Shown here: piece by piece, positions 3,793-42,689 of the stretch
Position numbering within the stretch: position 1 is the stretch's first letter
How the letters are laid out: each line of letters begins with the position of its first letter
Virus record (IMG/VR): IMGVR_UViG_3300049926_000057
Coordinates: 1 to 43,944 of that record
Strand: one strand, 5' to 3'
Length of the DNA stretch: 43,944 nucleotides
DNA from: a virus
Taxonomy: Duplodnaviria; Caudoviricetes
The notes under the pieces: generated by a model
Seen by the model: the letters and a program-made list of their open reading frames with translations, nothing else
What the model was told of the DNA's origin: nothing
Database searches by the model: none
Translations under genes and position numbers: made by a program

Positions 3793-4584
3793 ATGAAGAA
3801 CCGCTGGCTGACAAGTACACGCATCGCATATGCGCCTCCGGGTGAAGGGGGAAGCGACGAGGACCTGCACGATGACGAAGTCGAAAACCTCGAAGATGGC
3901 GAACTCGAAGAAGGCGACGACGAAGCCGATGATGCCGCCAAACAAGATGAAGGACAAGCCGACGGCGAAGAAGGCGGCGACGAGGAAGTAGTCGCCAAAA
4001 AGCCGGGGCGCGGCGAATCGCGCTTCCAGAAACTGGCGAACGAAGCTCGCGAAGCCCGCGAGCACGCGTCGAGGGTCGAGCGAGAGCTCAACGATTTCAA
4101 GGCCGAGCAGTCCCGCAGGGCTGCAACGGTCGAAAAGAAGGAACCCACTGCGGAGGAGATGGCGCTCTGGAGCACGGAGCAGATCATCGACTACAAGCTG
4201 CAGAAGGCGACCGGCGCGTTCAGCCAGAACCTCCAGCAGTTGCAGTGGAATACGCAGGAGGCCAACGACAAGGCTGCTTTCGAGCGCCTGCAGTTGTCCG
4301 ACCCGCGGGCCAAGAAGTACGCGGCTGAAGTCGAGACACGTCTCGCTGGCATCCGCAAGCAAGGACAGAACGTCGACCGCGAGGCGCTCTTGAAGTTCAT
4401 CATCGGCGAGAAGGTCTTTCAGGGCGGCGGCAAGGCGGCTGCCAAGCAGAAGAAGGACGGCGAGGCGCAGATCCGTCGCCAGAGGACCAACCCGTCCGGC
4501 GGTGGCAGCGACGTTCGCGGTGGCCGCACGCAGGACAGCGAAGCAGAGGCGCGGCGCAAGCGTCTTGAGAACGTAACGTTTTAA
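3793..4584 (+). CDS. Capsid scaffolding protein
   Basis: Acidic N-terminus and coiled-coil body; directly upstream of the capsid gene. GAGGAG RBS before ATG 3793. Confidence 0.75.
   Translation: MKNRWLTSTRIAYAPPGEGGSDEDLHDDEVENLEDGELEEGDDEADDAAKQDEGQADGEEGGDEEVVAKKPGRGESRFQKLANEAREAREHASRVERELNDFKAEQSRRAATVEKKEPTAEEMALWSTEQIIDYKLQKATGAFSQNLQQLQWNTQEANDKAAFERLQLSDPRAKKYAAEVETRLAGIRKQGQNVDREALLKFIIGEKVFQGGGKAAAKQKKDGEAQIRRQRTNPSGGGSDVRGGRTQDSEAEARRKRLENVTF
3872..3991 (+). CDS. Candidate overprinted Lys-rich 39-aa peptide (+1 frame of scaffold)
   Basis: MTKSKTSKMANSKKATTKPMMPPNKMKDKPTAKKAATRK. GAGGA lies 8 nt upstream. Scaffold Glu codons in the overlap are almost all GAA. Confidence 0.45.
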   Translation: MTKSKTSKMANSKKATTKPMMPPNKMKDKPTAKKAATRK

Positions 4585-4623
4585 GCGCGGCCGTGGGGCC
4601 GTGCATCTTGAAGGAGAGACGCA

Positions 4624-5979: not shown

Positions 5980-5991
5980 CAGGGGAGCCTG

Positions 5992-6285
5992 ATGGCTACT
6001 TCAACCTTCGGCACGACCGCAAACAACTCGCTGACGGCCCTGTTGACTTCGCGCAACATGGCCGCGGCGGATATCGCGGCGATTGCCAACGCGATCAAGG
6101 ACGACCTCAACCCGGCGCACCCGATCGCGCCGGGGACGTTTTCATCGATCAATCAGCTTTATGTCCCGAACCGGGGCATCCTGCAGATCCTGCCCGGCGA
6201 CTTCGTTGGAGTGGATTCACAGGGATGGCCGATCCTGGTATCGGCCAACTCGATCGCGCTTTCGAGCTGGGTCCACGTCCCATAG
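5992..6285 (+). CDS. Hypothetical virion-associated protein
   Basis: GGGGAG RBS; immediately follows the capsid gene. Confidence 0.7.
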   Translation: MATSTFGTTANNSLTALLTSRNMAAADIAAIANAIKDDLNPAHPIAPGTFSSINQLYVPNRGILQILPGDFVGVDSQGWPILVSANSIALSSWVHVP

Positions 6286-6298
6286 AGGAGCCTACAGA

Positions 6299-7021: not shown

Positions 7022-7029
7022 AGGGGCAT

Positions 7030-7461: not shown

Positions 7462-7464
7462 GAC

Positions 7465-9833: not shown

Positions 9834-9835
9834 CG

Positions 9836-18000: not shown

Positions 18001-18821
18001 CCGCGGCGAGCTACCCCGAGCAGGTCAAGATGGCCAAGAAGATCTGGGACTCGGTCGACAACCGCTTCGGCGAGGTGGTGCAGGACAATATCTTCTGGCA
18101 CACCATGCTGAAGCAGACCGCGCAGCTCGGCATGCGGTCGTACAGCTGGAACCTCGGCACGGTCAGGGAGATCGGCGGCGGTGCCAAAAGCGCGGTGACC
18201 AAGCCCAAGAGCCTCGGGCTGAAGGGCAGCGATTACGACCCCAAAACGGGCTACGTGGTGGCGCTGCCGATCACGGTGGCGATCACCAACGCGATGTACC
18301 AGTACGCCATGACCGGAAAGATGCCCGAGAGCCTTGACGACCTGGTGGCGCCGCGCACCGGTGGCGAGGTGCCGGGACTCGGCGGCCGTGGCCAGGTGGA
18401 GGAGCGCGCGCAGCTGCCGGGCTACCAGAAGGACGTGTTCGGCTGGTACAACGACTGGTACCAGGAGATGCTCAACAAGCGATCGTCGCTGATCAGCACG
18501 GTGGGTGAGGTGGCGGCGAACCGGGACTGGAAGAACGACCCGATCGCCAATCCCGAGCACAGCGCGCCCGAGTGGATGAAGGAGTACTTCCAGTACGCGG
18601 AGAAGTTCTTGCCGATCTCGGTCAAGCAGGGCATGCAGGGCGAGAAGAAGGGCTCCGCGCTCGGGCTGCAGTCGCTGCTCGGCATCCGGCCGTCACCCGC
18701 GCAGTTCACCGATCCGAAGGGGCTGGCGTCGCTCAAGAAGTACCAGGGAGAGCAGATCGACAAGAAGCGCAAGAAGGCCAGCGCACGACAGAAGCAGGTC
18801 TATGGCGGGCCGAGCGAATGA
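15078..18821 (+). CDS. Large internal virion (ejection) protein with ART-PolyVal-like N-terminal domain
   Basis: About 1247 aa, last structural gene. Contains FRG...MYSS...LA..Y...VAPMYI...GKKGVVIDNV.D...IFVTF...VKSKFAARFDP...DI. Confidence 0.7.
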   Translation: MADPLKVFTGLLDAIGEGAQAVKPTAPLKVAKAATKGYFSDIAGAGKTGADYFADIVKTKQQVPKPPKSPQLQKYEAHYAAQQVAKASPEKSLEEQLNELMADIKKAPPAPAAPKPTFAQQATQTAQKQALAPGLPPTVKPLTMHPDVLPEAQRQAARVKGNYVTEAFRGLTVHPGGDFAGTFKGSEMYSSVSTKLADMYSSYLSSHPGAKPGPHAYKDGASVAPMYIDTSDYLHTDAQGKKWTVFNPGAIADAKAQGKKGVVIDNVWDEPSSTKSLEGPQKIFVTFPEGLSTVKSKFAARFDPKSKDISRSIAAVGVGGAAGMVAMAPGDAKAGDDPAADAGAPDKDAGASGGYFDDLLKPEKKGSIFFRDKDAPDAVAPSTHSGLGRVKDIPGDVGGVFQESVDQYKGGKAATGEAFSKEELQKYSAYEDAYRKWEDGGMKGDPPQNPGTGPLKALKGISDVAGGAIGAVTSPIMGAFRSLVSKPVEEKTGFKHEWTEAVGSLVMPVTGVFKYGSAAPKAKAVIGEVGTFLNKIFNPEKLGKGDRAETLIRNSLGIAARDTETTKAAFDEYFKTINALGDNDKVALIGYIEGRTKGATIADPALQPVADTIKTAVDQRKSKLQALPSTHQMAFVEDYYTHQWENPTAAKAFTKDWFAKQGTGKNLKKRSIPTIADGMAAGLKPKTLNPLETITDYVTNMDRFIAHNAIIDAGRAVKDVKYFRKPQVAAALGMVKLEGRLALRRTKYGDMQAYAPADWARVYNNSIAKGWHQWETAGQIYDKLQTASNSVTAMELGLSGYHLLTMVNEGSIASVATAVSQAVSGVGALARGDMALGAKLLAGSAKTAVTAPFALGVKPFMGHKAQQVYLGRSTGSAQMRKTMDLLEAGGGRAVGTKHAADYKFSAANSYFTSFKRGELLASLKADASKGPLKFFARQLGRTLQSFAQPLFEVYIPKMKTGAFHENMSAWLQANPAASYPEQVKMAKKIWDSVDNRFGEVVQDNIFWHTMLKQTAQLGMRSYSWNLGTVREIGGGAKSAVTKPKSLGLKGSDYDPKTGYVVALPITVAITNAMYQYAMTGKMPESLDDLVAPRTGGEVPGLGGRGQVEERAQLPGYQKDVFGWYNDWYQEMLNKRSSLISTVGEVAANRDWKNDPIANPEHSAPEWMKEYFQYAEKFLPISVKQGMQGEKKGSALGLQSLLGIRPSPAQFTDPKGLASLKKYQGEQIDKKRKKASARQKQVYGGPSE

Positions 18822-20134
18822 AGCTGCTCCTGGTCGACCCGCAGGGGGCCTCGCTCGACATCGCCATGCGAGCGCACCGCGATGGCCACGACGTCAGGAT
18901 GGTGATTCGTGACACACCGAAAACAGTCAACATTGGAAAAGGCATTGTCCCGGTGGTGGATGGCACCGATCTGGCCCGACACCTACGATGGGCCGATCTG
19001 GTCGTTCTCGCCGACAACACCCGATGGCTCCAAGACGTGGACGCCTATCGCGCGGCCGGTGGTCTCGTGGTCGGGCCTTCGAAGGAAGCCGCGGACTGGG
19101 AACTTGACCGGGAAGTCGGCCAGCAGATCATGAAGAATGTCGGCATCGAGGTGCCGCCGTACCGCATCTTCAGCGACTATGATTCGGCCATCGCCTTCGT
19201 CAAGAAGGAGGATCGCCGGTTCGTCTCCAAGCCTTCGGGAGATGCCGACAAGGCACTCTCCTACGTCTCCAAGACCCCTGCCGATATGGTTTACATGCTG
19301 GAGCGCTGGAAGAAGTTCGGCAAGCTGAAGGGCGACTTCATCCTGCAGGACTTTAAGGCGGGCATTGAGATGGCCGTTGGTGGTTGGTGGGGGCCCGGCG
19401 GGTTCAACGAGGGCTGGTGCGAGAACTTCGAGTTCAAGAAGCTGATGAACAGCGACCTCGGCGTGGCCACCGGTGAGCAGGGCACGGTGCTCCGCTTCGT
19501 GCGCTCCTCCAAGCTGGCCAGGCGCCTGCTGACCCCCCTGCAGGAGGATCTGGAACGGATCGGCTATACCGGCTACATTGACGTCAACACCATCATCGAC
19601 GAGACCGGCAACATCTGGCCTCTCGAATTTACGATGCGTCCCGGCTGGCCCACCTTCAACATCCAGCAGGCGCTCAACGAAGGCGACACGGTCGAATGGC
19701 TCATGGAGCTGGCACAGGGACGCGATGCCCGGAATTTCTCGCTCGACCGCTTAGCGATCGGCGTCGTGCTGAGCATACCCGACTATCCCTACTCGCACAT
19801 CACGAGGAAGGAAGTGACGGGGATTCCGATCTACGGGATCAAGCCGGGGATGTGGCAGCACCTCCACCCCTGCGAGATGATGCTGGAGGTGGCGGCGAAC
19901 GACGTGGATGGGCGGATCGTCAACATGCCGATGCCCTGCACCGCAGGGGATTACGTGTTGGTAATGACCGCAACAGCCGACACCATCGGACAGGCCAAGG
20001 AAACAGTCTACCGACGTTTGAAACGCTTGGTGGTACCCAACTCCCCGATGTACCGGACCGACATCGGGGATCGGTTGAGCAAGCAGCTACCGCTCTTACA
20101 GAAGATGGGCTTCGCGTCAGGGATGACGTTCTAG
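18818..20134 (+). CDS. PurD/GARS-like ATP-grasp ligase (divergent)
   Basis: GPSKEAADWE, FVSKP, ILQDF..GIE, FKKLMNSDLGVATGEQG and LEFTMRPGWP align with the GARS ATP-grasp core. ATGA overlap with the upstream gene. Confidence 0.8.
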   Translation: MKLLLVDPQGASLDIAMRAHRDGHDVRMVIRDTPKTVNIGKGIVPVVDGTDLARHLRWADLVVLADNTRWLQDVDAYRAAGGLVVGPSKEAADWELDREVGQQIMKNVGIEVPPYRIFSDYDSAIAFVKKEDRRFVSKPSGDADKALSYVSKTPADMVYMLERWKKFGKLKGDFILQDFKAGIEMAVGGWWGPGGFNEGWCENFEFKKLMNSDLGVATGEQGTVLRFVRSSKLARRLLTPLQEDLERIGYTGYIDVNTIIDETGNIWPLEFTMRPGWPTFNIQQALNEGDTVEWLMELAQGRDARNFSLDRLAIGVVLSIPDYPYSHITRKEVTGIPIYGIKPGMWQHLHPCEMMLEVAANDVDGRIVNMPMPCTAGDYVLVMTATADTIGQAKETVYRRLKRLVVPNSPMYRTDIGDRLSKQLPLLQKMGFASGMTF

Positions 20135-20157
20135 ACCACGGCAAGCTTGACCGGCTG

Positions 20158-20394
20158 GTGGACATCTCGCTGCGCGAGCTCGAAGAGTTGCTGGAGATGC
20201 AGTGGGACCCGGACGACCCGAAGCTGAACGCCACCAAGCTGTCGGGCATTTCCGTGGTGTTAACCACGCAGACGAAAGTTGACGACACCCGGCTGCGCAA
20301 GCGGCAGACCGACATGATGCCACGCCTGCTGGAGATTCTGGCGCGGGAGGAGCGCAAGCTCCCGGTGCTGGATCTGGTGGCGAACCCAGCCTGA
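20158..20394 (+). CDS. Helical hypothetical protein (start uncertain; frame open from 19696)
   Basis: Protein-like C-terminal region with normal codon usage after the ATP-grasp stop. Confidence 0.55.
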   Translation: MDISLRELEELLEMQWDPDDPKLNATKLSGISVVLTTQTKVDDTRLRKRQTDMMPRLLEILAREERKLPVLDLVANPA

Positions 20395-22720: not shown

Positions 22721-22888
22721 TCACGAGGCCTTTTCACAAACAGCCTTGCCGCCGTACTCCTTGAACATCGGATGTTGCTCGATCACCTTGAGCACTTGCT
22801 GGCATGACTCGCGCGTCGGGTACTTCGACTTGTCAGGGTGCAGTACCTGACCGTTGACGACCACCGTGATCACCAGAATCCAATTCAT
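22721..22888 (-). CDS. Small Cys-containing, probably exported protein (55 aa)
   Basis: MNWILVITVVVNG...YPTRESC...C. ATGA overlap with the primase stop; AAGGAG RBS. Confidence 0.6.
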   Translation of the reverse strand: MNWILVITVVVNGQVLHPDKSKYPTRESCQQVLKVIEQHPMFKEYGGKAVCEKAS

Positions 22889-25800
22889 CTCTGCAACTCC
22901 TTGATCCGCTCCAGGCGGGTTTTGGTTGGTGATGGCGGCAGCGCCTCCTCCAGCGTGGCCACCACGCCCGACACCAGCGGGTTGGCCATGTTGATCGTGA
23001 GCACAGGCGTCTGCCCCGAGGCGAGATCCGTGCCCGCGCCCAGCGTGACCTTGCGCACCTCGCCCAGCACCACGCCTTGCTTCTTGAGCGTGTCGACGAA
23101 CCCGCGGATGTTGACGCCCGACTTGACCAGCCAGCGCTTCAGCGCCATCTCGGACAGGAACAGCCGCTTGTTCTCCACCTCGTAACGCACCAGCAGCTGG
23201 CGCGACGGCGCGCGCAGGATCGCCGAGCGGTGGCCGTGCTTGTACTCCGCGTTGACGATCAGCGTGTCGAGGAAGAACTCTGACAGCGCGGCAGCCAGCG
23301 CGGAGGACGAGTCGCTTGGCGCCGCGCCGCGGATCGAGCTCGCCCCTTCGGCCACGTAGTCGATCAGCCATCGGGTGATGCGTGACATCGAGAAGTCCAG
23401 CAGGCCCATCCCCTCCACGATCGTGCCGGCGGCAATGATCGACACCACCAGGCGCACCCAGAACCGATGCTTCTCCTCCAGGTGCGCGGCCTTGCGAACC
23501 TCGGCCGACCACTGCGGAATGTTGGCGCGTATCCACCCCACGATCTCGGGCTGCACCAGCTTCTTGATGTAGGCGTCGCCGGCAAAGCCGTGGTTGAAGT
23601 TCAGCTCGCGCCTGATCTCCTCGAAGTCCTCCTTCGCCATGTGCGCGGGCAGCGACGTCGTGAACTCCAGGATGCGCGCGGCCGGCGCATCCGAAGTATT
23701 CATGTTGGAGAGGATGTCGACGAGCGAGGCGTTCGACGCGGTGAGGAGGATCGTTTGCCATTCCGACTTGTTGATCTTGAGCCCGCCTTCGGCGGTGCCG
23801 CGGTCCTTGTCGGTGCCGTTGGTGAAAGTAAGCACGAACTCACGTATGAGCTCGGGATCTCGCTGGTGTAGCTCATCGAAGGTGCAGGGGAGATTGCCGA
23901 GAACACCAAGCTTGAGCCCCTTGGCCACGCGCGTGTCTGTCTCATCGAGTTTCAATCCTTTGTGCTGTCCCCAGATAGAAGCAGCGGCTTCAAGAGCCGT
24001 AGTTTTTCCAGAGGCTGTTCGATCAGAGACAAAAGAGACGATAGCGCCTCCTTCTCCTTCGGCGTGAAAGCGCATGAGAGGCGCTGCAAACCCGCAGAGA
24101 ACCGCAAGAGACTGGTGTTCAAGTCCTGCTGCAAACAGCTTATTAGCTGCTGCTTGCCATCGTTCGAGGGAGGCGCCTTTTTTGGTTTGCGCAGAGAGGT
24201 ACTGCGCGCGGTGTTCGAGGGTTGGCGATCCTGTAGCGGCTGTGACAGACGTGGAATTGTAGAGTCGCTTTCCCACGAGGAACGACGTTTCCCCGTCTTT
24301 CCATCCGAACTGGTCATAGCGCTTCTCCACGTCTTTCTCCCGATGCCAAAGGTCGATGGCGTTGCGCACGTACTTGCGCCAGAGCTCACCATCGTGAATC
24401 GTAACTCCGCGTTCGGCTAACTCCGTCGAGGCGTCGCGGCCGAGCGCTTGCCGCGCGGTGACGACGATGTCGCGCCACTCCGAGCGCGCTTTCTTTTCGC
24501 GGAAGACGAGGCCGTAGCGGCCTTCGTCGATTTCGGCCGTCTGGATCGCTTTGAGATAGATCGGGAACTCGCAGACGGTGTCGTAGATTGCGGCGCCGTT
24601 CTTGGACTCCCGGACGTGGACGAGCTTTCCTTCGCCGGTGTAGACGAAGTCTGCAGGTGCTGCAGGAAGGCGAGGTTCAGGCTCTCCAGCTGCAGGCGTA
24701 GCTGTGCCAGGGAAGATTGACTGCTGACCCCCATGCTGCGGAGCTGCTGCTGGAGCTGCTCCATGCGCTGTAGGAGCTTCACGTCCCAGCTGGATGGGGC
24801 TGGTGATTCGCCCCGAGTGCGGGCACCCGACGCATCCCGCTCGGTCCAGGCTTGCGAACTTGGCGCAGGTTGTTGGTCCGAAGCTTTCGAGGCGCTCAAG
24901 CTTTTCGTCAATTGCTCCATGCCACTCAGTATCTGACCACTCGTGAGCTCGATCATGGCCGTCAACGCAATGTGCCAGAACTCCGAGGGCGGCATGCCAG
25001 TGAGGCTCTGTAACCTGTCCGCGTCGCGTTTGTAGTGCAGCAATCTGTCGGCAACCGAGTGCAACTTCTCCTGCTCTTGCGGGTCGGTCTTGATAGAGTC
25101 CTCCGAGGAGGTCGGAACTGACCAAGGTGCGTGCAGCAGGCACGAAGGATGGTGATTGAACGACCGCGTCGAGTTGTCCTCGGCGCAAGTGCAGATCGGC
25201 TTTGACCGAACCCCGATCTTGTTGACCGCGCAGTTGTCCAGATGGGGTTCGTTCCCGTGTGCCCCGCAGTGGTAGCAACGTGTTTCCGGCATCTAAAAGC
25301 CTCTCAAAAAGTTGCAATGGGTAAGGACCGACCAGTGGTCCGGCGATGACTTCCTTCAGTCCGTTTTTGCGGTGGTGGGTGCCAGGCGTTCGGAGTACCG
25401 ACGATAGATCCGCAGTGCGAGTAGTGTCGACGTGAAGCCCGTGGTCAGCAAAAAGTTTAGCGAGCCCGGCCGCATATCGGCGCCACGTCTCAGGACCCAA
25501 CGGTGTGTCCAGCGGCCAATACAGATGAAGACCGTTACCCGAGCCAACGTATAGCGGCGCCGGCAGATCACGCGTTCGGCAGAAAGCTGCAACATGCTCG
25601 GCTCCAGTGGGCTGGTCCGGGTAACTCTTGCCTTCTCCGCAGTCGACATCTGCCCAAAGTGCTTGGGTACAGAGTACGTTGTGCTGGGTGCGTCCAAGGC
25701 GTCGCTGGCCTTGAGGGGTTCCCTTGGGGTCTTTGGCGTCAGACCGAAATGAGGAGCACGCATGGTAGACCGTCTTTCCCGAGGCATCGTGCTGCAGGAT

Positions 25801-25962
25801 GTAGAACGCCAGCTGCTCGACCGTGGCGAAGAGTTGATTCCACTTCCTCTCACCATGGACGACGTAGGCGCACTTAAACCCTTCTTGCGGTAGAACGCGC
25901 TTTAGGAACTCGACCGCTGCCTGCAGCCGTGCGGAGCTGTCGAATCCTTGCTGGCCGTTCAT
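22885..25962 (-). CDS. Primase-helicase: RepB/AEP-like primase, Cys cluster, DUF927 and P-loop helicase
   Basis: ALWADVD, SGNGLHLYW and VLRTPGT primase motifs; TCAKF...C.GC; QFGW; ASGKTT Walker A and FDE Walker B. Confidence 0.88.
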   Translation of the reverse strand: MNGQQGFDSSARLQAAVEFLKRVLPQEGFKCAYVVHGERKWNQLFATVEQLAFYILQHDASGKTVYHACSSFRSDAKDPKGTPQGQRRLGRTQHNVLCTQALWADVDCGEGKSYPDQPTGAEHVAAFCRTRDLPAPLYVGSGNGLHLYWPLDTPLGPETWRRYAAGLAKLFADHGLHVDTTRTADLSSVLRTPGTHHRKNGLKEVIAGPLVGPYPLQLFERLLDAGNTLLPLRGTRERTPSGQLRGQQDRGSVKADLHLRRGQLDAVVQSPSFVPAARTLVSSDLLGGLYQDRPARAGEVALGCRQIAALQTRRGQVTEPHWHAALGVLAHCVDGHDRAHEWSDTEWHGAIDEKLERLESFGPTTCAKFASLDRAGCVGCPHSGRITSPIQLGREAPTAHGAAPAAAPQHGGQQSIFPGTATPAAGEPEPRLPAAPADFVYTGEGKLVHVRESKNGAAIYDTVCEFPIYLKAIQTAEIDEGRYGLVFREKKARSEWRDIVVTARQALGRDASTELAERGVTIHDGELWRKYVRNAIDLWHREKDVEKRYDQFGWKDGETSFLVGKRLYNSTSVTAATGSPTLEHRAQYLSAQTKKGASLERWQAAANKLFAAGLEHQSLAVLCGFAAPLMRFHAEGEGGAIVSFVSDRTASGKTTALEAAASIWGQHKGLKLDETDTRVAKGLKLGVLGNLPCTFDELHQRDPELIREFVLTFTNGTDKDRGTAEGGLKINKSEWQTILLTASNASLVDILSNMNTSDAPAARILEFTTSLPAHMAKEDFEEIRRELNFNHGFAGDAYIKKLVQPEIVGWIRANIPQWSAEVRKAAHLEEKHRFWVRLVVSIIAAGTIVEGMGLLDFSMSRITRWLIDYVAEGASSIRGAAPSDSSSALAAALSEFFLDTLIVNAEYKHGHRSAILRAPSRQLLVRYEVENKRLFLSEMALKRWLVKSGVNIRGFVDTLKKQGVVLGEVRKVTLGAGTDLASGQTPVLTINMANPLVSGVVATLEEALPPSPTKTRLERIKELQR
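23952..24317 (-). CDS. Candidate overprinted gene (+1 frame of primase), Leu-rich helical C-terminus
   Basis: GGAG 7 nt before the ATG; coincides with an A/T-ending codon patch of the primase. Confidence 0.45.
   Translation of the reverse strand: MTSSDGKTGKRRSSWESDSTIPRLSQPLQDRQPSNTARSTSLRKPKKAPPSNDGKQQLISCLQQDLNTSLLRFSAGLQRLSCAFTPKEKEALSSLLSLIEQPLEKLRLLKPLLLSGDSTKD
24417..25292 (-). CDS. Candidate overprinted gene (+1 frame of primase), Cys/His N-terminus and coiled coil
   Basis: GAGAGG 7 nt before the ATG. CYHC...H...C...CTC...HH..C and LLQRMEQLQQQL...LRLQLESL. Confidence 0.6.
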   Translation of the reverse strand: MPETRCYHCGAHGNEPHLDNCAVNKIGVRSKPICTCAEDNSTRSFNHHPSCLLHAPWSVPTSSEDSIKTDPQEQEKLHSVADRLLHYKRDADRLQSLTGMPPSEFWHIALTAMIELTSGQILSGMEQLTKSLSASKASDQQPAPSSQAWTERDASGARTRGESPAPSSWDVKLLQRMEQLQQQLRSMGVSSQSSLAQLRLQLESLNLAFLQHLQTSSTPAKESSSTSGSPRTAPQSTTPSASSRSISKRSRRPKSTKAATASSSAKRKRARSGATSSSPRGKRSAATPRRS

Positions 25963-26176
25963 ATGAAGAGACCCCCCGGAGGTCTTCGAATTGTGTGATG
26001 CAGTGCTGCAGGAGTTTCAACGACACCTCTGCATCACGACCACCGTAACGGGGAGCGCGCTGGTCCACAATCCACGATCGCACGGTGGAGTACGGACGGT
26101 CGAACCAGTGCTGTAGGTCCGCAGTCGACAGGTCTCCCTGTCGCTGCAGCGCGAGTAGTCGCTTGATGAATGACAT
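25874..26176 (-). CDS. HTH-like DNA-binding protein
   Basis: LSTADLQHWFDRPYSTVRSWI resembles an HTH; AAGGGG RBS. Confidence 0.6.
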   Translation of the reverse strand: MSFIKRLLALQRQGDLSTADLQHWFDRPYSTVRSWIVDQRAPRYGGRDAEVSLKLLQHCITQFEDLRGVSSYERPARIRQLRTAAGSGRVPKARSTARRV

Positions 26177-27270: not shown

Positions 27271-27684
27271 TTACTTCTTTGGCGAGTTGAAGATGGTCTT
27301 GCGAATCCACGCGGTCTCGACACCAGGAGGCGCGGCCTTGTACTTGTCCATGTACTCGGACACAGCCTCCTTGGAAACAGCCGCGGTGAGGAACTCCTCC
27401 CGCTGCGACTCGAAGATGAAGGCGAACCACGCCTCGCGGTCCGCGACCTTCAGGGACAAAGTCTTCTTGCGGTACATGGTGCCCTGCGGCGTGGCGAGCG
27501 AGGCCTTGGCGTCGTCGTCCCCGGCCAGCTCGTTGAGCACGCCCGCGCCCCAGTCCTCCAGCGCCTTCATGGCGTCGTGGTAGGGCTTCATCTCGGCGTC
27601 GAAGGCTTCCTGCTGCGCATCGATGAAGTTGCGCAGCTTGATGTACTGGCCGATGTAGTCGGCATGTGAGGGTTGTGCGTTCAT
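27271..27684 (-). CDS. Conserved phage hypothetical protein (coiled coil plus beta domain)
   Basis: GGAGG RBS, ATGA overlap with the helicase stop; YIKLR...T..GT.Y...V.D. Confidence 0.7.
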   Translation of the reverse strand: MNAQPSHADYIGQYIKLRNFIDAQQEAFDAEMKPYHDAMKALEDWGAGVLNELAGDDDAKASLATPQGTMYRKKTLSLKVADREAWFAFIFESQREEFLTAAVSKEAVSEYMDKYKAAPPGVETAWIRKTIFNSPKK

Positions 27685-29237
27685 TCCCAGCCTCCCTTGG
27701 CAAGAGCCAGCAGCGCCCCCTGAAGGGTCTCGTTGGCCTCCAGCCTCCTGTAAATCTCGGTCTCGACGCTTGTCGACGTCAGCTGCACGATCGTGGTCGC
27801 GTGCACCTGTCCGGGCCGATCGATCCGCTTGTTGGCTTGCAGATACAACTCAGTGGAGTCGATCGGCCCGAACCAGATGACGCATGTCGCCTGTGTCAGG
27901 GTCAGGCCATGCGCCATCGTCCGGGGGTGCGCAATCAGGACGCGCGGCTTCTCCTTTGCCATGAAGTCGGAGAGGGTCTGGTTCCTCTCCTTGTCGCTCG
28001 GACCACCGTCACTACTACCTCTTACTACACCACAAGAGTAGTCCGACAACTCCTCATGTAACATAGTTATGACACTTGTCAATGGTGCGAAAATGATAAT
28101 CTTCTCGGAGCACTGCTCCATGGCCTCGCGCAGCGCCTTGATTCGCGGCGCGGCGTCCATGTGCGTGATCCGTCTTCCCTCGCCGTACACAGCGCCACAG
28201 GAGATCTGGATCAGCTTCATCCGCAGCACAGCCTCGTTCTGCGCCGTGATCGGACCGCTCTTGGTCATCAGCACGTAGTCGCGCTTCAGCTCCTTGTAGG
28301 CCTTGGTCTGCGCAGGCGAGAGATCGACCTCGCGCCTTTGTGTCGTACAAGGAGGCAGATCAATACAATCGCTAATGGCAAATCGAACAGAAGGCTGTAG
28401 CAGACGATGAACTTCAGCATGCGCCCCGCTCCTTGGTTTCCAGATGAACTGGTTGAATCGCATCATGGTGCGGCTCTGGAACGAGGCGTAGGACTCCCCG
28501 CCGCAGTTGTTGACCAACTTGGCCAGGCCGTAGGCGTCGGTGGGCGCGTTCGGCGTCGGCGTGCCCGTCATCATCCATAGGTAATCGCGCGTCGCCAGCA
28601 GCTTGCGCGCCAGCGCGTGGCGCGACGTGGTGCGGTCCTTGTACATGCTCGCCTCATCGACGATCACCATCCGGATATCTGGACGCGCGGCGAGGTCGAG
28701 CTCCTTCTTAAGGACCTCTAGTCCCTCGGGGTTGATGATGTAGAAGTCGGCAGGCTTTGCCAGCAGGTCGACCCGCTTGCGCTTGTCACCGTGGAGCACA
28801 ACACAGGTACGGCGACCCAGGAAGCTGGCGAAGACGGCGTCGGACCAGACTCGACGGAGAGTGCTAAGCGGAGCAACAACAATGCAGCGTAGGCCGGGAT
28901 TTGTGCACATAACATGATCGGCCGCCCAAAGCGCTGCAAGCGTTTTACCGGTCCCCATGTCGCTAAGCACGAAAGCACGAGGATTAACAACCAGGAAGTT
29001 AGCAGTAATTCGCTGAGCTTCAAAAGGAGTGTATTTTCCGGGGTAATCATAGCCGTTCACCTCCAGCGGCGGCAGCGTGGGCATGCCGAGATAGCGCAGC
29101 ATTTGCAGATTGTAGGTCGAGGTGGGGACGGCGATGAACCCGTTGGAGAGGCGCGTCGCAGTCGGGATCATGCGCGCGACGTTGTCCGCGTCCGGCGTGT
29201 CATAGACCACGAGCTTGCGTTGCGGGTCATGCCACAT
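27681..29237 (-). CDS. SNF2-family (SF2) helicase
   Basis: DMGTGKT, DEAS, TGTP, HGLTLT and QANKRIDRPGQ motifs. Confidence 0.9.
   Translation of the reverse strand: MWHDPQRKLVVYDTPDADNVARMIPTATRLSNGFIAVPTSTYNLQMLRYLGMPTLPPLEVNGYDYPGKYTPFEAQRITANFLVVNPRAFVLSDMGTGKTLAALWAADHVMCTNPGLRCIVVAPLSTLRRVWSDAVFASFLGRRTCVVLHGDKRKRVDLLAKPADFYIINPEGLEVLKKELDLAARPDIRMVIVDEASMYKDRTTSRHALARKLLATRDYLWMMTGTPTPNAPTDAYGLAKLVNNCGGESYASFQSRTMMRFNQFIWKPRSGAHAEVHRLLQPSVRFAISDCIDLPPCTTQRREVDLSPAQTKAYKELKRDYVLMTKSGPITAQNEAVLRMKLIQISCGAVYGEGRRITHMDAAPRIKALREAMEQCSEKIIIFAPLTSVITMLHEELSDYSCGVVRGSSDGGPSDKERNQTLSDFMAKEKPRVLIAHPRTMAHGLTLTQATCVIWFGPIDSTELYLQANKRIDRPGQVHATTIVQLTSTSVETEIYRRLEANETLQGALLALAKGGWE
28055..28082 (-). 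promoter_or_regulatory. Possible internal promoter within the helicase gene
   Basis: Exact TTGACA, 16 nt spacer, TACATG, in an AT-rich patch with no meaningful +1 ORF; faces the SSB/primase genes. Confidence 0.35.
28286..28420 (-). CDS. Candidate overprinted 44-aa membrane peptide (+1 frame of helicase)
   Basis: MLKFIVCYSLLFDLPLAIVLICLLVRHK...; AAGGAG 8 nt upstream, built with a rare AGG codon. Confidence 0.55.
   Translation of the reverse strand: MLKFIVCYSLLFDLPLAIVLICLLVRHKGARSISRLRRPRPTRS
28718..29050 (-). CDS. Candidate overprinted membrane protein (+1 frame of helicase)
   Basis: GGAGGTG 7 nt before the ATG; two Leu-rich hydrophobic segments; A/T-ending codon patch. Confidence 0.55.
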   Translation of the reverse strand: MITPENTLLLKLSELLLTSWLLILVLSCLATWGPVKRLQRFGRPIMLCAQIPAYAALLLLRLALSVESGPTPSSPASWVAVPVLCSTVTSASGSTCWQSLPTSTSSTPRD

Positions 29238-30729: not shown

Positions 30730-30911
30730 ATCAGCTCCTTCTCGCGCGCCAGCCACATGGGCAGCGTGCAAATTGTGGGCCTGAAGCTGATTTCAGCCTG
30801 CGACTTCGGTACCCACACTTCGCGGGCGCCGTCATTGATCAACCAAGCAGCCTTGGTCTCAGCCTTGATCTCGCAGGCGATGTCGACGAGGTCACTTTTC
30901 ATAGCGTTCAC
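30726..30911 (-). CDS. Small hypothetical protein
   Basis: ETKAAWL...WVPKSQ...LP.WLA.EK.L is a common small phage protein pattern. Confidence 0.65.
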   Translation of the reverse strand: MNAMKSDLVDIACEIKAETKAAWLINDGAREVWVPKSQAEISFRPTICTLPMWLAREKELI

Positions 30912-32763
30912 TCACTCCCCCCTCAGCAGCCAGTGGCAAGTTCGGCATCCAGACAGGTGGACGACACATCTCGGTAACCATAACCTCGTATGCCTGTTGT
31001 CCACTGTCAAGCGGTACAACTCCCACAAGTTCGTCATGAGTAGTGGTCGCGATCTTGATCCCGTACTTCACGATCCGGTTAGCGGCCTGACTGATCACCA
31101 TGCGCGCCATATACTGCACCACGTTCTCCACCAGCTTGGCGCCGTACATCTTGGTGGGGAAGCCACGGCGGGTCTTGACGCGCCACCCAGGCTCCAGCCA
31201 CGCGGGATCGTCCGCCGTGGGGTTGTGCCACTCCAGGCTGTCATAGATCAGCTCGGCGCAGCCGGGCAGACTGATTCGCCGCCTCCCCGTGGCCTCGTCG
31301 CAGCGCACCTGCAGCGGGCCCCAGTCGAAGTTGACGAAGTTCAGCATGCGCGAGAGCGCGACTTCCGCCTGCTGCCACAGCAGCTCTACGCGCTGGTGGC
31401 CACGACGATAAAACAGCTTCCAGTCCCGCGCGGTTTCGAGATCAATAATGACTGGCGGGCCATACGTGCCCAATCGCGCCGTCTTTTGGATCGTAGCGTC
31501 TCCAGCGCCAAATCCACACGACAGCTCGATCTGTTTACCCGTGCCACGTTCCGCTTTGTCCGCTCTAGTAATTGGTCGACCATAGATCGCTGTAGCGTTG
31601 ACGATGTAGGGGTCATAGCTGGAGTCCCCGGTTGCGTCCCATTGGCGGAACCTCTCGACAACATCGTCCTGCCCTGCGAACTCGTTGAGGATGCGGCACT
31701 CTATTTGCGAGGAGTCGACGACGACGAGGACTGCTCCCGGTGGAGCTTTAATAGCAGCGCGCAACTTCCCTCCACGTCGGAGGTTTTGCCAGTTAACGCC
31801 ATCTCCACCCGACCATCGGGTCGTATGCGCACCACAATATCGGAGATAGACAGGTGATCGCCCCCTTGAAGCCATCCATCCAAAGCGCTCCGCGCGCGTC
31901 TGGTCAATTGTCGACTTGATTCCAAGTCGCGCTGCGGCGAGAGCTTGAACTCTAGGGTTAACATCTTCTAACAACTCCTCCATGAACGGGTCGGTCTTGG
32001 CGAACGCGGGGATCGGACCGTTCTTCCCCGCCTTGTACTCGATCTCCACGCCTTCGGCTTCCAGGAGCGCGATGAAGGTCTCGTTCGAACCGATCTCCTT
32101 GGCGGTGGCGCCGAGCTCGGAGAGCAGCCCGACACGGCGCTTCTCCTCCTCGATCCAGATCTCGCCCAGGAGATCGATATCCGCTTCGAGTACGGGCTCC
32201 GTAAACATGCGGATGGTGGTGTCGATCACCTGGTATTCGTCCTGCGGGAACGGGTTCTCGTTGGACTGCGAGAGACGCTTGAAGATGTCGAGCGTCAGAG
32301 CACAATCATGTAGACAACCAGCGCCAAGACGCCCAAGCAGGTCCCGATCAAGGTCAGCAAAGCGCTTTCCACGAAACTCGTTATAGGGGACCGACTTGCC
32401 TTCAAGACCGAAATGCTGAGCCAGATTCCCAAGGCTGACAGAGAGATGTACGCCAAGTGCCAGCCGAGCCATGGAAAGCGTGTCATACCAGAACCTCGGT
32501 TTGATGCCGTAGTGGTGGGAAAGAATCAGTCCGTCGAATTGCGCGTGGTGGGCGAGCACTGCGGTGTCGGACCAGTCGATGCACTTCAGTCCGATCTCGA
32601 CTTCCGGTCCTTCGAGGAACGTCGATCGACCGGTCTCCACGAGATGCAGCCCACACCCCAGCGCCTCGAAGCGCGGGTCGCGCACGTAGGCCTCCGTGGT
32701 CATCTTTTTCAGCGTGTAGTCGTCGCTGAAGAACGTTTCGAAGTCCAAGACCATGAGGTTCAC
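30892..32763 (-). CDS. DNA polymerase family A with 3'-5' exonuclease domain
   Basis: LDFET and H.AQFD exo motifs; HTTRWSG...NWQNL; DSSQIECR (motif A); R..GK...L..GFG (motif B); HDE (motif C). Confidence 0.92.
   Translation of the reverse strand: MNLMVLDFETFFSDDYTLKKMTTEAYVRDPRFEALGCGLHLVETGRSTFLEGPEVEIGLKCIDWSDTAVLAHHAQFDGLILSHHYGIKPRFWYDTLSMARLALGVHLSVSLGNLAQHFGLEGKSVPYNEFRGKRFADLDRDLLGRLGAGCLHDCALTLDIFKRLSQSNENPFPQDEYQVIDTTIRMFTEPVLEADIDLLGEIWIEEEKRRVGLLSELGATAKEIGSNETFIALLEAEGVEIEYKAGKNGPIPAFAKTDPFMEELLEDVNPRVQALAAARLGIKSTIDQTRAERFGWMASRGRSPVYLRYCGAHTTRWSGGDGVNWQNLRRGGKLRAAIKAPPGAVLVVVDSSQIECRILNEFAGQDDVVERFRQWDATGDSSYDPYIVNATAIYGRPITRADKAERGTGKQIELSCGFGAGDATIQKTARLGTYGPPVIIDLETARDWKLFYRRGHQRVELLWQQAEVALSRMLNFVNFDWGPLQVRCDEATGRRRISLPGCAELIYDSLEWHNPTADDPAWLEPGWRVKTRRGFPTKMYGAKLVENVVQYMARMVISQAANRIVKYGIKIATTTHDELVGVVPLDSGQQAYEVMVTEMCRPPVWMPNLPLAAEGGVSERYEK
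31701..31964 (-). CDS. Candidate overprinted 87-aa protein (+1 frame of polymerase)
   Basis: GGAGGAG upstream; globular-looking sequence; A/T-ending codon patch. Confidence 0.5.
   Translation of the reverse strand: MLTLEFKLSPQRDLESSRQLTRRARSALDGWLQGGDHLSISDIVVRIRPDGRVEMALTGKTSDVEGSCALLLKLHREQSSSSSTPRK
32295..32486 (-). CDS. Candidate overprinted two-TM membrane protein (+1 frame of polymerase)
   Basis: GAGG 7 nt before the ATG; two hydrophobic helices; the ORF coincides with the codon patch. Confidence 0.55.
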   Translation of the reverse strand: MTRFPWLGWHLAYISLSALGIWLSISVLKASRSPITSFVESALLTLIGTCLGVLALVVYMIVL

Positions 32764-36604: not shown

Positions 36605-36671
36605 TCGCTACCAAGTTACCTCCAAACGCTCGTCCTACACCGGAATACCTATCATCGCTACGAAGTTACCT
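36605..36671 (+). repeat. 17-bp direct repeat pair TCGCTAC(C/G)AAGTTACCT, 50 bp apart
   Basis: Copies at 36605-36621 and 36655-36671 with one mismatch. Confidence 0.8.
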
Positions 36672-38034: not shown

Positions 38035-38098
38035 ATAGACCAGTTCGACAAGTATAGCAAGTTTGTTAAAAGGTTAACAAAATCAGAGAGGTAACGGG

Positions 38099-38299: not shown

Positions 38300-38403
38300 G
38301 CTGGAACCTAATCATAGGTCTGCTGCTGGGTGCAGCCGCTGTGGCCGCGGTCGGTGGCGGGTGGTACTTCTGGCAGATGTGGAAAGCCACGTTCGGTGGC
38401 TGA
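38296..38403 (+). CDS. Membrane micro-protein (35 aa)
   Basis: MSWNLIIGLLLGAAAVAAVGGGWYFWQMWKATFGG; ATGA overlap with KTSC. Confidence 0.55.
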   Translation: MSWNLIIGLLLGAAAVAAVGGGWYFWQMWKATFGG

Positions 38404-40366
38404 GGAAGATCCGCGCGCCGAAACTATACTGCGCCTTGGGCGGAACAAGCGCCTGGCGCATGCTGCGCTGTTCGGTCACAGGCATCCGAACGTCACGCCC
38501 GCCCTGCACTACGAGATCATCGACCTCTGGCACTCCCCGCACCCGAAAGTCGAGGTGATGGCGTTCCGCGGCGCCGGCAAGAGCACGCTGTCGGAAGAAG
38601 CCGTGATCGTCGAGGCCTGCCTGCGGCAGTTCAAGAACGCCATCGTGCTGGGCTCGTCCTACGATCGCGCGGTCGAGCGCCTGACCTCGGTCAAGCACGA
38701 GTTCGAGACCAACCCGTTCATCGAGGAGCTGTTCGGCGACCTCGTCGGCAAGACGTGGAACGAAGGCGAGATAGTCCTGGCCAACGGCGTGAAGATTCAG
38801 GCCAAGGGCATTGAGCAGTCGATGCGCGGCACCAAGCACCTCGACCAGCGGCCGGACCGGCTGTTCGCCGACGACATCGAGGAGCAGGAGAACGTCGACA
38901 CCCCGGAAGCGCGCTTGAAGTTCCTGCGGCGGTTCATGAAGGTGGTGGTCCCTGCCCTCGCCCCGGAAGCCCACATCCGCGTGCTGGCGACCCCGCTCGA
39001 CCGGGAAGCGCTGGCGATGCAGCTGGCCAAGGACCAGGGCTGGGTCACGCGGGTGTTCCCGATCGAGACCATCGACGAGCTAGGGGAGCGCAAAGCAGCA
39101 TGGCCGGATCGCTACCCGCTGGAGTGGATCGACGCGACCAGGTCGGACTTCGAGCGGCTGGGCCTGCTGACCGAGTACAAGCAGGAGTACATGTGCGAGG
39201 CCGAAGACCCCGCCAGCAAGACCTTCACCGCGGACCTGTTTCGCGTCGAGCCGATCGTGCGGACCTGGCAGGGGACGTTCGCGTTCTTCGACCCGGCGCG
39301 CACCGTGAAGGCCACCTCCTCCACCACGGGCTGGGCGGTGTGGAGCTGGGTCAACAACCGGCTGATCGTGTGGGACAGCGGGGCGGCGCTCCTCAAGCCG
39401 GACGAGATCGTCAATCAAATTTTCGTGATAGACGAACAGTACTCGCCGGTCGAGATCGGCGTGGAGCGCGACGGCCTGGAGGAGTTCCTGCTGCAGCCGC
39501 TGCGGCAGGAGCAGTCCCGGCGCAACACCATCGTGCCGATCCGGGCTATGAAGGCCCCGGTGGGCAAGATGTCGTTCATCAAAGGGCTTCAGCCGTTTTT
39601 CAAGGCGCGCGAGATAGTCTTTGTTAAGCACATGCCAGAGTTGCAGGCGCAGCTGCTATCATTCCCAAGTGGTAGGATAGACGCGCCCAATGCGCTGGCA
39701 TACGCTCTCAAGATGCGGCCGGGGGCACCGGTCTACGAGGACTTCAATGTCGTCAATATTTTTGAAGACCTTGCAGTGGTGGCGAGAACGCCTGCGTGGC
39801 TCGCCCTCAACGCAACAACGGGGTGGACCACCGGAGTCCTCGTGCAGGCGGTTGAGGGAGTGTTGCATGTCGTCGCCGATTGGGTCCGAGAAGGTGATCC
39901 GGGTCAAGTGCTCGCTTCAATCGTGGCCGCTGCTGGGCTGGAGATCGGACGAACACCACTGCGAGTGGTCGCTGGGCCAATGCACTTCACTGGTCACGAC
40001 GCCGTGGGCCTTCGAGCGGCGGCCAATAAAGTTCCTGTTAGTCTCCGAACCGGCGCGGATCTCGCCACCGGTCAAGCCGAGATCCGAGCTCTCCTGAAGA
40101 CAACGTCGCGGGGGCAGCCGTCGTTGCGGGTCTCCACCAACGCCCGGTGGACGCTGAACGCCTTCGCCGGGGGGTACTGCCGGGACGTGCTGCGCACCGG
40201 TGAGCTGTCGGAGTTCACCAAGACGGGCCCCCACAAGGTCCTGATGGAGGGACTGGAGGCGTTCGCCGGACTGCTCCGGGGAGGCGTGGCGGGGGATGAT
40301 GACAGCGAGCGGAACTACGCCTATGCTGCCGACGGGCGCCGGTACCTGTCGGCGCGTGGGAACTAG
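38396..40366 (+). CDS. terL: Terminase large subunit with C-terminal extension
   Basis: FRGAGKST Walker A, LFADDIE Walker B, ATPL coupling motif, QEYM, FFDPA and FP.G..D nuclease motifs; upstream of the portal. Confidence 0.9.
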   Translation: MAEEDPRAETILRLGRNKRLAHAALFGHRHPNVTPALHYEIIDLWHSPHPKVEVMAFRGAGKSTLSEEAVIVEACLRQFKNAIVLGSSYDRAVERLTSVKHEFETNPFIEELFGDLVGKTWNEGEIVLANGVKIQAKGIEQSMRGTKHLDQRPDRLFADDIEEQENVDTPEARLKFLRRFMKVVVPALAPEAHIRVLATPLDREALAMQLAKDQGWVTRVFPIETIDELGERKAAWPDRYPLEWIDATRSDFERLGLLTEYKQEYMCEAEDPASKTFTADLFRVEPIVRTWQGTFAFFDPARTVKATSSTTGWAVWSWVNNRLIVWDSGAALLKPDEIVNQIFVIDEQYSPVEIGVERDGLEEFLLQPLRQEQSRRNTIVPIRAMKAPVGKMSFIKGLQPFFKAREIVFVKHMPELQAQLLSFPSGRIDAPNALAYALKMRPGAPVYEDFNVVNIFEDLAVVARTPAWLALNATTGWTTGVLVQAVEGVLHVVADWVREGDPGQVLASIVAAAGLEIGRTPLRVVAGPMHFTGHDAVGLRAAANKVPVSLRTGADLATGQAEIRALLKTTSRGQPSLRVSTNARWTLNAFAGGYCRDVLRTGELSEFTKTGPHKVLMEGLEAFAGLLRGGVAGDDDSERNYAYAADGRRYLSARGN

Positions 40367-40370
40367 TACA

Positions 40371-40493
40371 ATGGACCAAGTCGTTACAGTTGGAATGATC
40401 TTGAAGCCGGCGCTGGTCATCGTCGGTGTACTCCTAGCGCTGGGGGTCGTTGTCTGGATACTCTCAGTGGTCGCATCGGGCTTCGACCACTAA
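40371..40493 (+). CDS. Membrane micro-protein (40 aa)
   Basis: Single TM segment; fills the terL-portal gap and abuts the portal ATG. Confidence 0.55.
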   Translation: MDQVVTVGMILKPALVIVGVLLALGVVVWILSVVASGFDH

Positions 40494-42689
40494 ATGGCTG
40501 ACGACGTCCGCACAGAACCAAACGACGATGAAACTGAGGACCAGGCTGATGCTCGGGCCAAGGCGCTTGACCGCAAAGCGCTGGCGAAGCTCGACCGCGA
40601 CGAGGAACTGTCCACCAAGAAGTCGATCAACAAGGCCCTGCTCGACCTCTACAAGGACGTCGAGAAAGGGTTCGACGAGCAGCGCGGGCGCGCCGACCAG
40701 CAGATGGACGACTGGGACATCTTCAACTGCCAGCTCGGGCCTAAGCAGTTCTACAACGGCACCGCGCAGCTGTTCATGCCGATCGTGCGCAACGCGATCG
40801 AGGCGCGCAAGACGCGGTTCACCAACCAGATCTTTCCGACCTCGCAGCGCAACGTCGAGGTGATCTCGTCCGACGACATGTCGCCAAATGCGCTGGTGGC
40901 GCTGCTTGAGAACTACATCAAGAAAGCGCGGCTGCGCACCGAGGTGATGCCGGCCTTGATGAAGAACGGCGACGTCGAGGGGCAGTACAACATTTACGTC
41001 AGCTGGCGGAAGACATCGCGGCACGTCGTGCAACGCGTCAAGAAGCCGGTTGAGGTCGAGGAAGGTCTCGAAGATCCCGGCGAGACCGTCGACACGATCG
41101 AGAAGGAGACCCTGACGCATGGTGCGCCGAAGGTCGAGGTGATCGCGGACTCCGACGTCTTGATCCTGCCGCAGACGGCGGACTCGATTGATGAGGCGCT
41201 CGCGCAGGGTGGCAGTGTGACGATCCTGCGGCGATGGAGCAAAACCCAGATCCGTCGCATGATCAAGGAGAAGGACCTTGAAAAGAAAGCCGCTGAGAAG
41301 CTTCTCAAAACCATGTCCGACGACACGGGGGGCTCGCAGAAGCGCGACAAACCAAAAGAAATGGTGGACGCAGCTGGTGTCAAAAAGGACGGCCGAGGAA
41401 AATTCGCGCTTGTCTACGAGACATGGACCGTCCTCAACATCGACGGAGAGCGACGTCTATGTCGAACTTATCTCGGTGGGCCCGACAACGTACTTGGTGC
41501 TAAACGCAACCCGCTCTGGTCCGATCATCTTCCCCTTATTTCCTGCCCAGTTGCAAAAGTTCAAGGAGCTTTCAAAGGGCGATCTCAGATCGACCCCGTG
41601 CGGGACCTACAGTATCTTGCAAACGACACCATTAACGAAGCTGCGGATAGTGCAGCCTACGCCCTGATGCCGATCATCATGACCGACCCGATGAAGAACC
41701 CGCGGATCGGCAGCATGATCTTGTCGATGGCCGCGATCTGGGAAACCAATCCCAATGACACCAAGTTCGCGCAATTTCCCGAGCTGTGGAAGCAGGGACT
41801 GGAGATGGTTGCGACCATCAAGAGTGAAGTGTTCCAGACCCTCAGCGTCAACCCGGCTGCGATTACTCAGAGCAATTCTCTCAAGAAGCAAAACCAGGCG
41901 GAGGTGGCGCAGAACCAACAGGTTGACATTCTTACGACGGCGGACGCGGTCACGGTCGTCGAGGAAGGCATCCTGACGCCGATGCTCAATCGCATGATCG
42001 AGCTCGACCACCAGTACCGCGACGAGGAGATGACGGTCGCGCAGTATGGCGAGCTCGGGCATCGCGCCAACATGGAGAAGATCCCGCCGGTCCAGTTCAA
42101 CCGCCACTACCAGTTCCGCTGGCTTGGCGTCGAGAGCGCACGCAACGCGCAGATGATCCAGCAGCAGATCGCCGGCATGAACGTGATCCGCGGCATTCCG
42201 CCCGAGCAGCTCAACGGCTACAAGGTCAACCTGGTGCCGGTGATCGCGAAGTTCGTCGAGAACACGTTCGGCCCGCGGCTCGCGCCGCTGATCTTCATCT
42301 CCCCGGAGATGCAGATGCCAGTGCCGGTCAACGAGGAGAACATGTTGCTGTCGGAGGGCTACAAAGTCCCGACGCACGACATGGACGATGACGACCAGCA
42401 CATCCAGGCCCACATGATGGCGATGAAGCTCAACGAGGCGCAAGGCGGCGCCGGCAGCGCCAAGAAGTTTCAGGAGCACATCTTCCTGCACATGCAGCAG
42501 AAGGCGAAGAAGCAGCAGGCCGCGATGCAGCAACAGCAGGGAGCGCCGGGCATGCCCGGCGGCGCCGGCCCCGGTACTCCGGGCACTCCGCGCGCTGGCG
42601 CGCAGCCGGGCCAGTCGCGCGGCGGGCAAGGTCCGCCGGGGATGATTCACTCCGACCAGATGCCGGGTTCAATGCCGAGGAAAATGTAG
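40494..42689 (+). CDS. Portal protein (P22-like, with long Gln/Pro-rich tail)
   Basis: 731 aa after terL; G.S....V.DLQ...N...N...D pattern; D.H..H...H and Q/G/P-rich C-terminus. Confidence 0.85.
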   Translation: MADDVRTEPNDDETEDQADARAKALDRKALAKLDRDEELSTKKSINKALLDLYKDVEKGFDEQRGRADQQMDDWDIFNCQLGPKQFYNGTAQLFMPIVRNAIEARKTRFTNQIFPTSQRNVEVISSDDMSPNALVALLENYIKKARLRTEVMPALMKNGDVEGQYNIYVSWRKTSRHVVQRVKKPVEVEEGLEDPGETVDTIEKETLTHGAPKVEVIADSDVLILPQTADSIDEALAQGGSVTILRRWSKTQIRRMIKEKDLEKKAAEKLLKTMSDDTGGSQKRDKPKEMVDAAGVKKDGRGKFALVYETWTVLNIDGERRLCRTYLGGPDNVLGAKRNPLWSDHLPLISCPVAKVQGAFKGRSQIDPVRDLQYLANDTINEAADSAAYALMPIIMTDPMKNPRIGSMILSMAAIWETNPNDTKFAQFPELWKQGLEMVATIKSEVFQTLSVNPAAITQSNSLKKQNQAEVAQNQQVDILTTADAVTVVEEGILTPMLNRMIELDHQYRDEEMTVAQYGELGHRANMEKIPPVQFNRHYQFRWLGVESARNAQMIQQQIAGMNVIRGIPPEQLNGYKVNLVPVIAKFVENTFGPRLAPLIFISPEMQMPVPVNEENMLLSEGYKVPTHDMDDDDQHIQAHMMAMKLNEAQGGAGSAKKFQEHIFLHMQQKAKKQQAAMQQQQGAPGMPGGAGPGTPGTPRAGAQPGQSRGGQGPPGMIHSDQMPGSMPRKM
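41278..41667 (+). CDS. Candidate overprinted gene (+1 frame of portal)
   Basis: AAGGAG upstream of TTG; coincides with an A/T-ending codon patch; C-terminal half looks globular. Confidence 0.4.
   Translation: MKRKPLRSFSKPCPTTRGARRSATNQKKWWTQLVSKRTAEENSRLSTRHGPSSTSTESDVYVELISVGPTTYLVLNATRSGPIIFPLFPAQLQKFKELSKGDLRSTPCGTYSILQTTPLTKLRIVQPTP

Follow-up and report, generated by a model that had tools for sequence, protein, structure and literature searches.

The window analyzed here is the whole of IMG/VR virus record IMGVR_UViG_3300049926_000057, a phage contig of 43,944 bases and 62% GC that carries an integrase gene. Its replication module is read from the minus strand, and the genes for packaging and virion structure are read from the plus strand. 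Several of its core genes appear to hold a second set of small open reading frames (ORFs), read on the same strand and shifted by +1. The host genes concerned encode a primase-polymerase/DUF927 helicase fusion (22885..25962, minus strand), an SF2 DNA helicase (27681..29237, minus strand, start approximate), a family A DNA polymerase (30892..32763, minus strand), the terminase large subunit (terL; 38330..40366, plus strand, with a likely start near 38411), a portal or head-tail connector protein (40494..42689, plus strand), and a putative scaffold protein (3793..4584, plus strand) that has no family match and takes its name from its position before the capsid gene. An ATP-grasp/PurD-like gene (18818..20134, plus strand) matches Pfam GARS_A and GARS_C, both under the curated cut-off; its product is 55-94% identical among relatives, and the gene is placed after internal-virion-like genes.

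The primase gene contains three nested +1 ORFs, all on the minus strand: primA (25356..25856, 166 aa, start uncertain, with an alternative start at 25595 that has a Shine-Dalgarno motif (SD) and gives 79 aa), primB (24417..25292, 291 aa), and primC (23952..24317, 121 aa, soluble). Also on the minus strand, the helicase gene holds helA (28718..29050, 110 aa) and helB (28286..28420, 44 aa), and the polymerase gene holds polA (32295..32486, 63 aa), polB (31701..31964, 87 aa), and polC (31386..31664, 92 aa, or 76 aa from 31616). On the plus strand, terLA (39867..40097, 76 aa) lies in terL, a 129-aa ORF with a TTG start (41278..41667) in the portal gene, and a 39-aa ORF (3872..3991) in the scaffold gene. 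A different overlap is formed by a 232-aa ORF in the -1 (+2) frame (19696..20394, plus strand), which covers the last 146 ATP-grasp codons. Together, the 12 overlaps occupy 3,865 bases, about 9% of the genome, with the tentative portal ORF and the short form of primA included.

Over these ORFs, the GC content of host third codon positions (GC3) falls, and these dips are a real feature of the window, located where the first-pass annotation had reported them. In the 13 genes taken together, 1014 patch codons have a wobble GC of 0.51 and the remaining 6389 codons one of 0.86. Pooled GC3 is about 0.7 before the ATG and 0.5 after it, and it increases again at the stop, this second step carrying some ascertainment bias. 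The match between patches and +1 ORFs, described as nearly universal, is found in primase, helicase, polymerase, terL, portal, and scaffold but fails in the ATP-grasp gene and at two more dips, in the helicase (around 28080) and the polymerase (around 31010), which contain no conserved ORF. Each of the last two AT-rich patches has a TTGACA, a promoter-like -35 box, on the minus strand, at 28077..28082 (in six of the seven relatives shown) and at 31010-31005, at the polymerase end (common to near relatives); these are possible internal promoters. As had been noticed, SD-like motifs lie 5-10 nt 5' of most +1 starts, and rare AGG codons build the motif at 28420, 32486, and 25292.

The proposed codon-shuffle check was only partly favorable. 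With synonymous codons permuted within 30-codon blocks, so that protein and GC3 profile were retained, and with SD strength scored against an anti-SD motif, nine low-GC3 +1 ORFs with SD and ATG were observed versus 4.3 ± 1.5 in 300 shuffles (maximum 8). The window alone thus beats chance only moderately, and the main weight falls on the homologues. On the other hand, the caveat that any patch of A/T-ending codons makes the +1 frame look protein-like was not borne out: low-GC3 windows of the tail fibre, integrase, endonuclease, and one other gene contain 12 +1 stops in 372 codons, so such a patch does not by itself open the frame.

Many uncultured relatives of this phage exist, and a megablast search of 22000-43944 against the GenBank phage collection gave no close relative, the best protein identities to GenBank phages being 27-45%. 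Because the relatives in GTDB are contigs inside mixed metagenome-assembled genomes, a host was not assigned. Homologues of the 13 host genes were taken at a protein coverage of at least 45%, with no internal stop or N; removal of near-duplicates left 92 rows, the window included, of 114 primase candidates, 175 of 208 for helicase, and 60 of 88 for terL, and codon alignments were made of the remaining sequences. Family identity thresholds were 37% for primase, 50-55% for helicase, 45% for polymerase, and 47% for terL.

Against a null that fixes the host protein and the local GC3, with 30-56 homologues per gene, +1 stops are depleted in most patches. Observed and expected numbers, which are non-independent counts because homologous sequences share ancestry, are 2/38, 8/90, and 17/76 for primA, primB, and primC (30 sequences), 67/143 and 41/132 for the helicase patches (56 sequences), 34/57, 19/61, and 23/68 for polA, polB, and polC (40 sequences), and 28/77 for terLA (49 sequences). 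The +2 and antisense frames within the same patches have stops near or above expectation, which rules out antisense frames as the cause of the dips, and control regions behave as expected (306/316 in primase, 328/336 in capsid). The dips recur at the same alignment columns down to homologues of about 40% identity. The nested frames are narrower in distribution than their host frames, since distant primase homologues return to near expectation (417/428), and they are patchily present on the trees; no homologue of a nested product was seen outside its host gene in the fetched loci.

Starts are conserved as well. Where a host codon pair nAY+G permits an ATG by synonymous choice, it is used in 24 of 29 opportunities at 39867 (all 24 with an SD), 31 of 43 at 29050, 19 of 23 at 25292 (over two adjacent columns), 19 of 28 at 31964 (89% with an SD), and 15 of 25 at 24317 (73% with an SD), the SD background being 21% of 3715 +1 ATGs. 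The terL ORF had been placed at about 39750; its conserved start is 39867. A start with its own ribosome-binding site is conserved for primB, primC, helA, helB, polB, terLA, and the scaffold ORF and is variable for primA, polA, and polC. Moreover, the frame is open, and its GC3 dip present, more often in homologues with SD and ATG than in those without: 24/26 versus 6/27 for terL, 17/19 versus 15/64 for helA, 26/30 versus 9/19 for polB, 11/11 versus 8/18 for primC, 21/25 versus 10/25 for polC, and 9/10 versus 25/77 for helB; primA shows no such contrast.

Within the primase gene, primA is supported, with a synonymous ratio of 0.27 versus 0.68 (here and below, synonymous divergence was measured among three to five near genomes). 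In 7 of 21 homologues, one of them at another position, the first +2-frame stop and the first primA ATG share bases in an ATGA. In the window, 17 nt separate the first nested ATG from the preceding stop of the upstream small gene (25874..26176, minus strand, overlapping the primase start, with a weak repressor-family match at E 0.005). These ATGA overlaps suggest that primA translation is coupled to the upstream gene. Four beta strands are predicted for the C-terminal part of primA, with a predicted local distance difference test score of 68-77 at residues 41-90. The strongly supported primB starts in a variable primase linker and has a predicted make-up of an N-terminal CxxC, helices, a long coiled-coil-like helix, and a Ser/Arg-rich tail. 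Of 21 homologues, 14 have the CxxC within the first 25 residues, versus 3 of 689 background windows, and it also recurs out of sample, in 28 of 145 database relatives absent from the alignment (one of 146 was dropped as a duplicate) versus 1 of 505 windows. A primB profile matched 215 clusters, listed without genomic context, which are probably the same frame in other genomes; a search of the Atlas gave primB no usable match. For primC, supported as a frame, the sequence is not constrained (0.89 versus 0.68). At primase columns 724-757, some relatives show hints of more lineage-specific +1 ORFs with an SD.

The helicase and polymerase patches include helA, helB, and polA, small hydrophobic proteins in the +1 frame. 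The first, helA, is supported and fast-evolving (synonymous ratio 0.83 versus 0.55); it is a predicted membrane protein preceded by the SD GGAGGTG, with a hydrophobic segment in all 30 called homologues. A predicted single-pass membrane peptide, helB has support within the near clade and in a few others, being open in six of six near relatives and hydrophobic in six of eight called homologues. Support for polA, which has two hydrophobic segments, is moderate; it is called in 10 of 37 homologues, and all 10 are hydrophobic. A T-skewed wobble (T 0.39-0.42, A 0.09-0.13) is seen only in these three hydrophobic ORFs. The frames of polB and polC are supported, the latter with its variable start.

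Relatives carry two extra helicase +1 ORFs, at columns matching window positions 28840 and 28021 (for example, L029:4521-4784 and L029:5337-5633), with ATG at 39 of 45 and 23 of 29 opportunities and a conserved SD; they are not separate ORFs in the window. Polymerase column 196 hints at a lineage-specific +1 ORF with an SD in 6 of 40 homologues. A 41-aa candidate at the polymerase end (30912..31037, minus strand) was not supported, being closed in both near relatives and having no SD.

Among the structural and packaging genes, terLA is strongly supported, with a synonymous ratio of 0.51 versus 0.73. Between terL and the portal gene, a small hydrophobic ORF (40296-40493, plus strand) has possible starts within the end of terL, in the +1 frame. 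The scaffold ORF is supported and would yield a Lys/Met-rich basic peptide read from the acidic N-terminus of the scaffold: among 12 homologues, GAA:GAG is 107:22 inside the ORF versus 82:156 downstream, GAA giving Lys in +1, and the synonymous ratio is 0.27 versus 0.55 in three near genomes. Free-standing Lys/Met-rich basic peptides with a strong SD and a shared motif occur in relatives (L029 at about 11847, L066 at about 16648, L037 at about 3436, and L233 at about 7800), three of them directly after primase, and the same scan of the window found none. A link between them and the scaffold peptide was rejected, composition alone being common and the lone apparent nested copy having proved free-standing. 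For the portal ORF, the case is tentative and confined to the near clade, where the ORF has TTG with an SD in four of five near genomes and +1 stops at 2/12.

In the ATP-grasp gene, the +1 ORF that had been proposed (18960..19133, plus strand) was rejected, being closed in two of two near relatives and open in 3 of 15 at 55-70% identity. The -1 ORF of the same gene is strongly supported: +2 stops number 1/53 in 20 homologues, 19 of the 20 have ATG or GTG at one shared column, and the synonymous ratio is 0.39 versus 0.75. It ends in a free conserved C-terminal domain, for which the Atlas gave only clusters without a name and, at 0.86, a weak lead to a small terminase. The layer, described as lying at exactly +1, also includes this -1 overlap, which had been overlooked. 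The first-pass annotation had also expected ten or more small proteins, several in the membrane: stop depletion, SD with ATG, and GC3 steps support about ten ORFs, three of them predicted membrane proteins, with the portal ORF tentative and the ATP-grasp +1 ORF dropped.

A set of results weighs against reading these frames as genes for selected proteins. Synonymous divergence, which is reduced in primA, terLA, the scaffold ORF, and the -1 ORF, is not reduced in primC, polA, polB, polC, or the portal ORF, equals background in primB, and is raised in helA and helB (0.83 and 1.12 versus 0.55). An absence of synonymous constraint, named in advance as evidence against the layer, is thus found in six of the ten ORFs and not in primA, terLA, or the scaffold ORF, which means that most frames are kept open while their sequence is not conserved. 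An OLGenie-like ratio of nonsynonymous-nonsynonymous to nonsynonymous-synonymous changes is lower inside the ORF for terL only, and column-wise wobble conservation exceeds background for the primase and terL ORFs only. Family-wide stop depletion is weak or absent for helB (38/36), the scaffold ORF (8/12), the portal ORF (110/136, with no net synonymous constraint), and the ATP-grasp +1 ORF (19/31). In comparisons of phylogenetically independent pairs, terL, polB, polC, and primC tend in the predicted direction without any of them reaching significance, and no trend is seen for helA. A within-codon-box permutation gives hydrophobicity only modestly below that observed, and about half of the nine ORFs counted in the window could arise from host sequence and composition. 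PHROGs and Pfam gave the nested products no meaningful family (one DUF7220 match at E 0.05 was ignored), and their AlphaFold models had low predicted template modeling scores (0.32 and 0.39), with no fold match at E of at most 0.001. Also, region boundaries and identity thresholds were picked post hoc, with the data already seen.

For the unconstrained ORFs, the main rival explanation is that the frames are translated but that selection acts mostly on translation itself, ribosome traffic tuning host-gene output or protecting the mRNA, with most products being tolerated by-products. This would account for ORFs that retain start, stop, and composition while +1 identity drops to 40-53% at host identities of 78-100%, and for a hydrophobic segment that moves among near relatives. 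It is considered unlikely, since the CxxC motif, the Lys bias, the T-skew limited to hydrophobic ORFs, and the synonymous constraint seen for primA, terLA, and the scaffold ORF are signals at the protein level. That the dips are instead by-products of recombination, RNA structure, or promoter elements, the open +1 frame simply following host amino acids and local composition, is highly improbable: two dips do hold TTGACA and no ORF, shuffles produce 4.3 ORFs by chance, and several patches lack constraint, but +1 stops alone are depleted even under a null in which host protein and local GC3 are kept constant, other low-GC3 windows do contain +1 stops, and the dip columns persist in homologues of about 40% identity.

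An internal SD is able to stimulate frameshifting, and a third possibility is that host-frame ribosomes undergo a programmed frameshift into the +1 frames, which would then be alternative C-termini and not separate genes; the variable starts of primA and polC would agree with this. The evidence against it is indirect: in most homologues the +1 frame has stops a few codons before the conserved Met, and at terL the ATG is retained in 24 of 29 instances although synonymous change could abolish it. This explanation is given a very slight chance. The reading that we consider likely, resting on open frames, conserved SD and ATG, GC3 steps at start and stop, and clade restriction, is that about ten +1 frames in the primase, helicase, polymerase, terminase, and scaffold genes, with their own ribosome-binding sites, are translated into small accessory proteins, overprinted and mostly fast-evolving.

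Under this reading of translated accessory proteins, the host frame would be ancestral and the nested frames would have been born by overprinting. Ribosomes would initiate internally on the host-gene mRNA, or, for primA, through coupling to the stop of the upstream gene, and selection on the second codon position of the nested protein would keep host wobble near 50% A/T, producing the dips. Three of the products would be inner-membrane peptides, one a helical protein that binds zinc, and one a small basic peptide with possible DNA binding. Small size, membrane segments, the zinc-binding motif, fast divergence, and patchy presence fit an accessory host-interaction role; that these are dispensable host-interaction proteins co-expressed with replication and packaging has about an even chance of being right, function being the weakest step of the mechanism. 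With embedded single-gene lysis proteins of the phiX174 E type, helA, helB, and polA share small size, hydrophobicity, and the +1 frame; their location in replication genes argues against a role in lysis.

The kind of architecture is already known from phage T7, and its scale differs here. In T7, genes 4.1 and 4.2 (in the primase-helicase gene), 19.2 and 19.3 (in terL), and 18.7 are nested or mostly nested, all in +1 by calculation, so that five same-strand +1 genes lie in host genes, four of them within replication or packaging genes; four of the five products are annotated merely as hypothetical. The present phage differs in having about ten such ORFs plus the -1 overlap, about 3.9 kb in all, in reaching also the polymerase, helicase, and scaffold genes, in having three ORFs serially in one gene, and in their turnover across the clade. 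No matches were seen between the nested products of the window and those of T7. The embedded Rz/Rz1 spanins (T7 18.5/18.7) share the +1 nesting and a membrane-associated product, whereas here the host genes are not spanins and the Cys motif of helA is not retained in near relatives; an inner-membrane spanin host with a conserved nested lipoprotein was not found.

In Microviridae (phiX174 E and K) and other small viruses, earlier accounts describe de novo frames with a narrow distribution, accessory products, and omissions by gene callers (PMC8227390, PMC9865509). Frame origin and narrow spread are alike, the difference being that the present genome is a 44 kb tailed double-stranded DNA phage. 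An accessory host-interaction role also fits descriptions of de novo overprinted viral genes (PMC8227390). In this class of phage, annotated overlaps are mostly short, the median for DNA viruses being 15.6 nt (10.1101/2021.06.10.447953). No description of this clade, or of such a layer in tailed phages, was found in the literature searched, subscription journals being mostly outside its scope. The expectation that standard annotation would miss these frames is largely correct, apart from two frames that gene callers did call on some public contigs.

Elsewhere in the window, a tail-like gene at both ends (about 43570-43944 and 1-130) has a repeated peptide unit, suggesting that the contig junction holds a tandem repeat or is terminally redundant. 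A cluster of small membrane or lipoprotein-like genes occupies 1797-3673 on the plus strand, with no recognizable endolysin match there.

Surveys of viral gene overlap depend on annotation and yield mostly short overlaps in double-stranded DNA viruses, whereas here dual coding seems to cover about 9% of a 44 kb genome, across a clade that is uncultured and widespread. If the frames are translated, phage gene counts and estimates of the ratio of nonsynonymous to synonymous substitution rates (dN/dS) in core genes would be off for such clades, and de novo gene birth would become testable on a natural series of presence and absence along the tree. GC3 dips combined with frame-specific stop depletion offer a cheap screen for other high-GC phages. 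A broader proposal, to which we give somewhat less than an even chance, is that the +1 frame of essential genes is a standing nursery, an operon within the operon in which a dozen translated genes come, go, and diversify against a background of unchanging host proteins, so that fast-evolving host-interaction proteins are locked to genes that cannot be deleted. If this were true, the phage studied here, together with T7, would point to a general unannotated layer of tailed-phage proteomes.

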